Positions 25,535 to 25,863 of a DNA stretch of 64,000 nucleotides are shown in pieces. Below the pieces are notes generated by a model. It had not been told where the DNA came from. It worked only from the letters and a program-made list of their open reading frames with translations, and did not search any database. Every line of letters begins with the position of its first letter. Positions within the stretch are counted from its first letter, which is position 1. Origin of the DNA: an uncultured Pelagibacteraceae bacterium (GTDB taxonomy: Bacteria; Pseudomonadota; Alphaproteobacteria; Pelagibacterales; Pelagibacteraceae); the NCBI GenBank assembly GCA_902635865.1, contig CACPPD010000002.1, positions 90,887-154,886 of the forward strand, in the 5' to 3' direction. Position numbers and translations under genes: made by a program.

Positions 25535-25611
25535 TGGTTGCGGGGGACGGATTTGAACCGCCGACCTTCAGGTTATGAGCCTGACGAGCTACCAGACTGC
25601 TCCACCCCGCG
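25535..25611 (-). tRNA. Initiator tRNA-fMet (CAT)
   Basis: CGCGGGGTGGAGCAGTCTGGTAGCTCGTCAGGCTCATAACCTGA...GCAACCA; C1:A72 mismatch; encoded CCA. Confidence 0.97.
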
Positions 25612-25618
25612 GTAATTT

Positions 25619-25813
25619 TTAAATTCTATTCTTAAGTTTATTTAATTTCTTAACTCTTTTAATATTTTCTTGAAGAATTCTTTTTTTCTTTTCAGAAGGT
25701 TTTTCATAAGTATTTTTTAATTTAATAACTTTAAAAAAACCATCTCTTTGAAGTTTTCTTTTTAAAACTCTCAAAGCTTGTTCAACATTATTATCTTTAA
25801 CTTCTATTTTAAT
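25619..25813 (-). CDS. rpsU: 30S ribosomal protein bS21; probable ATT start at 25813 (ORF track uses TTG at 25825)
   Basis: VKDNNVEQALRVLKRKLQRDG...YEKPSEK; GGAGGT 4 nt before ATT. Confidence 0.95.
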   Translation of the reverse strand: MKIEVKDNNVEQALRVLKRKLQRDGFFKVIKLKNTYEKPSEKKKRILQENIKRVKKLNKLKNRI

Positions 25814-25834
25814 AACTACCTCCAAAAAAGCGCT

Positions 25835-25863
25835 TAGATAACACTTTTACAAATTTATGTCTA
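25835..25863 (-). promoter_or_regulatory. Predicted sigma70 promoter of rpsU and tRNA-fMet
   Basis: Minus strand TAGACA-N17-TATCTA with a TGn extended -10. Confidence 0.55.

Follow-up and report, generated by a model that had tools for sequence, protein, structure and literature searches.

An AUU start codon behind a strong Shine-Dalgarno sequence on Pelagibacterales rpsU, a probable compensated weak-start unit

The rpsU gene in the stretch of DNA analysed here (64,000 nucleotides, hereafter the window, from a Pelagibacterales (SAR11) assembly of 934 kb that is 75% complete) holds no in-frame ATG, which raises the question of where its translation starts and why such a start would have been kept. 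On the minus strand, the 5′ end of the gene reads GCGC-TTTTTT-GGAGG-TAGTT-ATT-AAA-ATA-GAA-GTT, in which a U-run (25824-25829) directly precedes the Shine-Dalgarno (SD) core GGAGG (25819-25823; GGAGGUAGUU, able to pair with GGAUUACCUCC at the 3′ end of the 16S rRNA), followed by the 5-nt spacer TAGTT (25814-25818) and the ATT codon (25811-25813). Both the missing in-frame ATG and the strong SD in front of ATT, which had been noted in a preliminary description of this DNA, were confirmed on the minus-strand sequence. The sole canonical in-frame start in the mechanical ORF list is a TTG at 25825-25823.

Read from ATT, the coding sequence (25619-25813, minus strand) comprises 64 codons and a TAA stop (25619-25621), and its product matched the Pfam family Ribosomal_S21 (PF01165) with E = 1.8e-15 and 56.8 bits (cut-off 27) over profile positions 2-54 of 55. 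Profile position 2 corresponds to residue 7 of the TTG ORF, which places ATT at the usual Met position of bS21, as the preliminary description had proposed. Matches in the PDB were to bS21 and bS21m chains, the closest structural relatives by sequence being mitochondrial bS21m. The gene order on the minus strand (window 25877-26689) is rpmE (L31), a homologue of the TrcR-family cell-cycle regulator, rpsU and tRNA-fMet, and a profile search of the window revealed a convergent transaldolase gene downstream.

A match to rpsU was present in 186 of 201 Pelagibacterales genomes, and start regions were compared for 115 loci, corresponding to 95 distinct haplotypes from 11 genera and two families (f1 and f2; the genus of the window is referred to as g1). 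In family f1, the aligned codon was ATT in 61 haplotypes and ATC in one, with GGAGG located 4-6 nt before it (9 nt in genus g3), so that GGAGG stood 4-9 nt before ATT or ATC in every non-ATG haplotype of this family. All seven loci of family f2 read (A/T)AGGAGG-N8-ATA-GT(C/T)-GAA. Since their first conserved canonical in-frame codon is at position 21, within the conserved fold, ATA is the start in f2. Moreover, an in-frame stop lies 1-4 codons 5′ of ATT, with no ATG, GTG or TTG in between, in about five genera among g2-g7 and in some g1 genomes (loci L033, L051-54 and L057-68; examples are TAG GTT, TAA TTT and TAA GCA AAT directly preceding ATT), leaving AUU as the only possible start in many loci. 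Codon 3, which is ATA in the window, is ATC, ATT or GTA elsewhere and is therefore not the start. The preliminary description had counted an ATG at the ATT codon of relatives as a point against an AUU start. Such an ATG was indeed found exactly at this position in 26 genomes belonging to the same genus as the window, all of them without SD, but it supports this codon as the start and does not refute it. In this gene, which offers no usable canonical start, ATT follows an SD and corresponds in position to the N-terminus of the homologues, and NCBI assemblies already annotate rpsU from ATT with a 64-aa product. Together, the upstream stops, the ATG at the same codon and the NCBI gene call bear out the proposed AUU start of rpsU, which is beyond reasonable doubt from these comparative data and, given the existing annotation, is not new in itself.

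Mechanical gene callers mostly assume a start at the upstream TTG (25823-25825, minus strand), yielding a 68-aa protein that begins MEVVIK; this is the only canonical in-frame start in the window, and the 68-aa form prevails among the members read of a public cluster of 4,227 members. We nevertheless consider this start very improbable and rejected it, as the TTG is not conserved and the stretch behind it is non-coding. Specifically, TTG is missing in L033, L044, L049 and L051-L075, with CTG, TAG, AGG or others in its place in other genera; it shares bases with the SD and lacks a separate one; and the four codons from TTG to ATT vary non-conservatively and by frame-shifting length changes (a spacer of 4, 5 or 6 nt and a U-run of 0-9), from which we conclude that they are not translated. 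The U-run stretch was considered non-coding for the further reason that its length changes shift the upstream frame. We give next to no credence to ribosomes finishing a 22-codon upstream frame (25809-25877, minus strand) at a UAA that overlaps AUU (AUUAA) and restarting on rpsU without a good start, because this probably non-functional frame, even though its ATG overlaps the trcR stop (TAATG) and it occurs in 39 of 61 ATT haplotypes, is not kept in register (U-run length removes it from the other 22), would contain the putative promoter described below, and leaves the conserved SD unexplained.

Several gene calls in public data touch on the same region. Metagenome calls of 83-88 aa (P0015, P0024, P0029 and P0107) correspond to the 22-codon frame fused to rpsU, because the length of their U-run puts the upstream ATG in frame. 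Longer calls of 92-96 aa (P0001 was read) come from very short contigs and contain an internal duplication that is probably an assembly artefact, and the calls P0032 and P0086 read through the rpsU stop into the tRNA. With AUU as the start, most metagenomic rpsU calls would be wrong at the N-terminus, either as 68-aa TTG forms or as 85-aa fusions. An additional or weaker S21-like match containing an in-frame TAA was seen in G067, G135 and G177 and could represent either a pseudogene or a further copy, possibly of phage origin; pelagiphages are reported to encode bS21 (PMC9976891).

Upstream of the SD, we found a motif resembling an extended –10 element (TGTTATCTA, TGnTAnnnn) at 25835-25843 on the minus strand. 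Its TGnTA block is located 11-12 nt from GGAGG (15 nt in g5) and is kept in g1, g2, g3, g5 and the ATG subgroup, which suggests that it is an extended –10 promoter motif. Transcription would then start about 7 nt past the motif, yielding a leader of only about 16-18 nt. The promoter predicted in the preliminary description is thereby supported in part: the motif lies at a fixed distance in relatives, but a generic sigma-70 promoter and terminator scan called nothing upstream of rpsU. Folding of the leader and early coding region revealed no structure beyond that of shuffled sequences (z = +0.85), making an r-protein-binding leader unlikely. An Rfam scan of 24500-27500 yielded only the tRNA and nothing at the leader; a match to a Staphylococcus sRNA (30.5 bits, below the 48-bit threshold) was discarded, as it was driven by the 5′ end of the tRNA.

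The presence of the SD followed the identity of the start codon. GGAGG was found in 69 of 69 haplotypes with AUU, AUC or AUA (62 AUU/AUC and 7 AUA) and in none of the 26 ATG haplotypes, which read TTTAAAAATATTT-ATG or similar in place of the GGAGG leader, and the combination of ATG with GGAGG was never seen among the 95 haplotypes, which include related genomes and are therefore not independent samples. The switch is most clearly seen between L082 (ATG) and L104 (ATT), whose leaders and promoter regions are near-identical and in which only the SD block and the start differ. A tree built from the flanking trcR/rpmE region placed the ATG genomes in three groups and required 4 changes; an AU test on this tree did not reject a single ATG clade (p = 0.38), so that the covariation may trace back to a single event or to a few independent ones. 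The ATT codon, in turn, was kept in 61 of 62 haplotypes across 7 genera, at protein identities down to 61%, as was ATA in all 7 haplotypes of the sister family f2. On these sequence comparisons, the SD and the start codon probably form one selected unit, which was lost as a whole (AUG, no SD) in one subgroup of the genus. A literature search for an AUU start in rpsU, or for work on SAR11 start regions, retrieved no paper. Three aspects appear to be undescribed: that the start is conserved throughout the order, that it covaries with the SD in an all-or-none manner inside a single genus, and that weak rpsU starts extend across the class (see below).

The rpsU SD stands out against the SD use of the genome that carries it. 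The 3′ end of the 16S rRNA (GGAUUACCUCCUUUCU) is a canonical antiSD, and the energy of its pairing with the rpsU SD (–12.2 kcal/mol) ranked 2 of 862 start regions, which were crudely defined genome-wide by the first ATG of long ORFs. Among about 865 of these crude start regions, a 4-mer SD core was found in 12.9% (versus 6.5% of mock sites) and GGAGG in 0.5%, which confirmed genome-wide the earlier observation that most genes are without clear SD; leaders were A/U-rich throughout the genome and lacked a G peak. Energies of –7 kcal/mol or lower were nonetheless reached by 49 of 861 start regions (5.7%), against 19 mock sites (2.2%), on the same crude definition. Strong SDs are thus enriched over mock sites and rpsU is not their sole carrier, from which it follows that the antiSD is probably usable by ordinary ribosomes. 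A prfB frameshift site, sought as a sign of antiSD use, was not found in the 75%-complete assembly. Other strong-SD genes (L148-L157) encode a GXGXG-domain protein, an ABC permease, UreF, Hsp20, L16, a solute-binding protein, EF-G, a glutamine synthetase-like protein, ETF-alpha and a NuoE-like protein, several of which may be internal operon genes.

Beyond the Pelagibacterales, rpsU starts were examined in 30 other alphaproteobacterial families (loci L118-L147), with one locus (L144, GTG) coming from an unpublished genome (G232). Assigned by N-terminal alignment and SD spacing, by which AUH and CTG cases are to be read as probable, these starts comprised 5 ATG, 15 GTG (14 among 29 without L144), 4 TTG, 4 ATC (L129, L133, L134 and L142), 1 ATA (L143) and 1 CTG (L140). 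There is no canonical alternative before the upstream stop in L129 and L134, and the L134 leader, GGAGGGCGGTCCC-ATC-GTC, is close to the f2 leader, GGAGGGCAGTCCC-ATA-GTT. With rpsU being non-ATG in 25 of 30 families, which is far from usual for bacterial gene starts, the weak start seems to be old and class-wide. No relation between SD strength and start-codon class was observed across the 30 families, and SD-rich alphaproteobacteria have a good rpsU SD whatever the start codon.

The start of infC, which in other bacteria is subject to IF3 autoregulation, was surveyed as well. It is a GTG directly after the upstream stop, with no SD, in genera g1 (G000, L077:1216-1761) and g5, and an ATG in g2, while it is probably an ATT 7 nt after AGGAG in g3 and probably an ATA 6 nt after AAGGAG in family f2 (infC loci L158-L162). 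A near-cognate infC start is thus present in some Pelagibacterales lineages and was replaced in the window's genus, where, with infC starting at GTG, the classic IF3 start-codon loop is not evident.

The gene downstream of rpsU is an initiator tRNA-fMet (CAU) at 25535-25611 on the minus strand, and the preliminary description was right that it begins 7 nt past the rpsU stop (tRNA-Met(CAT), 25611-25535). It carries a C1xA72 mismatch, the 1:72 mismatch being the mark of a bacterial initiator tRNA, whereas the other two CAT tRNAs of the assembly are paired at 1:72, so that no second tRNA of the initiator type is present in this 75%-complete assembly. Initiator tRNAs usually have three G:C pairs in the anticodon stem that are inspected by IF3 and the P site, but in this stem (UCAGG/CCUGA) A29:U41 stands in place of the first of them, leaving two G:C pairs. 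Initiator variants with fewer G:C pairs in this stem have been reported for some alphaproteobacteria, and the A29:U41 variant might go along with tolerance of near-cognate starts. The tRNA is located 3-9 nt past the rpsU stop in genus g1, the ATG subgroup included, and about 20 nt past it in g2; it is not adjacent to rpsU in g3, g5 and family f2. As this linkage is seen in two genera only, it is not part of the conserved unit of AUH start and SD. It is also broken in single genomes of the genus, since L105 (G111) has a post-stop sequence (CACGGGCTGAAACTGT) unlike the usual initiator tRNA 5′ end and L100 (G134) has a T-run and no tRNA after the rpsU stop. In the window's genus, a single promoter probably serves both rpsU and the one initiator tRNA gene that was found, and RNase P cleavage would then leave the end of the rpsU mRNA a few bases past its stop.

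The reading that we favour, with a probability of roughly 0.6, is that rpsU carries a compensated weak-start unit under dosage selection that would be inherently sensitive to initiation proofreading. The weak pairing of AUU with fMet-tRNA would be offset by the strong SD-antiSD helix on a short unstructured leader, and SD and start codon would as a unit fix the output of bS21. On the simplest history, an ancestral rpsU with an SD and a weak start was inherited (GUG, UUG or AUH in most alphaproteobacteria), and SAR11 may have lost most of its SDs while keeping that of rpsU, because a near-cognate start needs it. In the ATG subgroup, the start would have changed to ATG, after which the SD could have decayed to the A/U-rich leader that is typical of the genome. 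To our knowledge, AUU, AUC and AUA are rejected as starts by IF3 in all bacteria examined so far. Output from the AUU start would consequently be expected to fall as IF3 activity or start-codon proofreading rises, and through this sensitivity the synthesis of bS21, a platform protein that assembles late, would follow the state of the initiation machinery. The rejection of AUU-class starts by IF3 and the resulting autoregulation of infC are cited in PMC7797042 and PMC5499595, and nutrient limitation and ppGpp in vitro affect mRNAs with non-AUG starts more strongly (PMC5499595).

Much of the same evidence could also be read without any regulation, the near-cognate start being an inherited accident for which the SD compensates, and the retention or loss of the SD reflecting nothing but dependence and mutation pressure. 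The rpsU SD may indeed simply be ancestral and have been retained because AUU needs it, without regulatory use, as the SD is good on alphaproteobacterial rpsU whatever the start codon. The change from GGAGG to AAAAA fits AT-biased decay once the SD was no longer needed, a single origin of the ATG group was not rejected, and neither leader structure nor operator was found. Nevertheless, ATT could become ATG by one substitution and was still kept in 61 of 62 haplotypes across 7 genera (and ATA in 7 of 7), intermediates with ATG and SD were never seen, and rpsU is non-ATG in 25 of the 30 other alphaproteobacterial families. The long-kept weak starts, the missing intermediates and the 25 non-ATG families argue for selection on the weak start, so that we regard a wholly unregulated history as unlikely.

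The preliminary description had gone further and proposed a feedback circuit on bS21. This proposal found no support, as there was no leader structure, none of the bS21 features of the Bacteroidia type and an infC starting at GTG, and the pairing of SD and start codon can be explained by SD dependence alone; feedback via IF3 or via bS21-free ribosomes is a possibility, not a finding. One version of such feedback would follow the Flavobacterium type, in which 30S subunits lacking bS21 and having a free antiSD would bind the strong rpsU SD and start even at AUU, whereas mature SAR11 ribosomes would use the antiSD little; synthesis of bS21 would then run while the protein is lacking and cease once ribosomes are complete. 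The parallels comprise the same gene in an SD-poor genome, a canonical antiSD, an outlier rpsU SD and a short leader, and the mechanism was shown experimentally in F. johnsoniae, whose ribosomes without bS21 have their antiSD freed and translate the SD-bearing rpsU faster (PMC9976891, PMC13000457). In addition, poor IF3 binding and initiation at non-canonical codons have been found for immature E. coli 30S subunits (PMC6868393), behaviour that would supply an AUU-based sensor as well. The Bacteroidia mechanism, however, involves Tyr54 and a weakly basic bS21 tail (PMC7797042), while the tail of SAR11 bS21 after KPS (EKKKRILQENIKRVKKLNKLKNRI) is strongly basic, with 11 K/R, 2 E and no Tyr, and the alignment to F. 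johnsoniae bS21 (7jil_z) spans only residues 3-49. Moreover, F. johnsoniae rpsU combines AUG with a 13-bp helix, and strong SDs are carried in SAR11 by other genes (L16, EF-G, Hsp20, transporters). Older work on E. coli also speaks against a Flavobacterium-type reading, since S21 promotes SD pairing there instead of blocking it. Overall, we find it doubtful that this type of autoregulation operates in SAR11.

A broader and more speculative extension of the compensated weak start is that weak rpsU starts (AUU, AUA, AUC, GUG) represent a widespread sensor of ribosome maturity, in which poorly proofreading 30S subunits would favour an SD-anchored near-cognate rpsU, with the SAR11 unit also driving the only initiator tRNA gene found. 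We hold this to be a long shot worth stating for what it would entail: synthesis of bS21 would rise exactly when incomplete subunits (30S lacking bS21 or binding IF3 poorly) accumulate, and bS21, the supply of fMet-tRNA and initiation fidelity would be linked in a minimal genome. SAR11 rank with the ocean's most abundant bacteria and have very few classical regulators, and a start codon and SD that together determined the amount of a ribosomal protein would provide regulation with hardly any cost to the genome. The window's genus further provides a natural experiment, with AUU plus SD on the one hand, AUG without SD on the other, and no mixed forms. These data also extend the story of rpsU and its SD from Bacteroidia to an unrelated SD-poor lineage with a different type of bS21, and indicate that weak rpsU starts run through the Alphaproteobacteria.

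Among known systems, the rpsU autoregulation of Flavobacteriia (PMC7797042, PMC9976891, PMC13000453, PMC13000457) is alike in the SD-poor lineage, the canonical antiSD, the outlier rpsU SD and the short leader. It differs in that the start is AUG in Flavobacteriia and AUU or AUA in SAR11, that a 13-bp helix stands against a conserved SD of a 5-nt core, that SAR11 bS21 is without Tyr54 and a weakly basic tail, and that a strong SD is not (almost) confined to rpsU in SAR11. The infC type of IF3 autoregulation (AUU in E. coli; ATA in F. johnsoniae, PMC7797042) shares a conserved AUH start on a gene of translation initiation with an SD before it, and by analogy a dependence on IF3 would be expected for rpsU. 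In contrast to infC, however, the product in SAR11 is bS21 and not a codon-rejecting factor, so that the loop is not closed by the product, and infC itself starts at GTG in the window's genus. For E. coli pcnB, Binns and Masters are said to have described in 2002 an AUU start whose inefficiency limits expression, which resembles SAR11 rpsU in that a weak AUU start holds down the protein level; bS21, however, is needed at one copy per ribosome, and the weak start in SAR11 is therefore offset by a strong SD. Compensation between start codon and SD was reportedly observed in comparative genomics by Belinky et al. in 2017, and there as here strong SDs accompany weak starts and are missing before strong ones. 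In SAR11, by contrast, the switch is all-or-none and concerns a single gene in a single genus with an SD-poor background.
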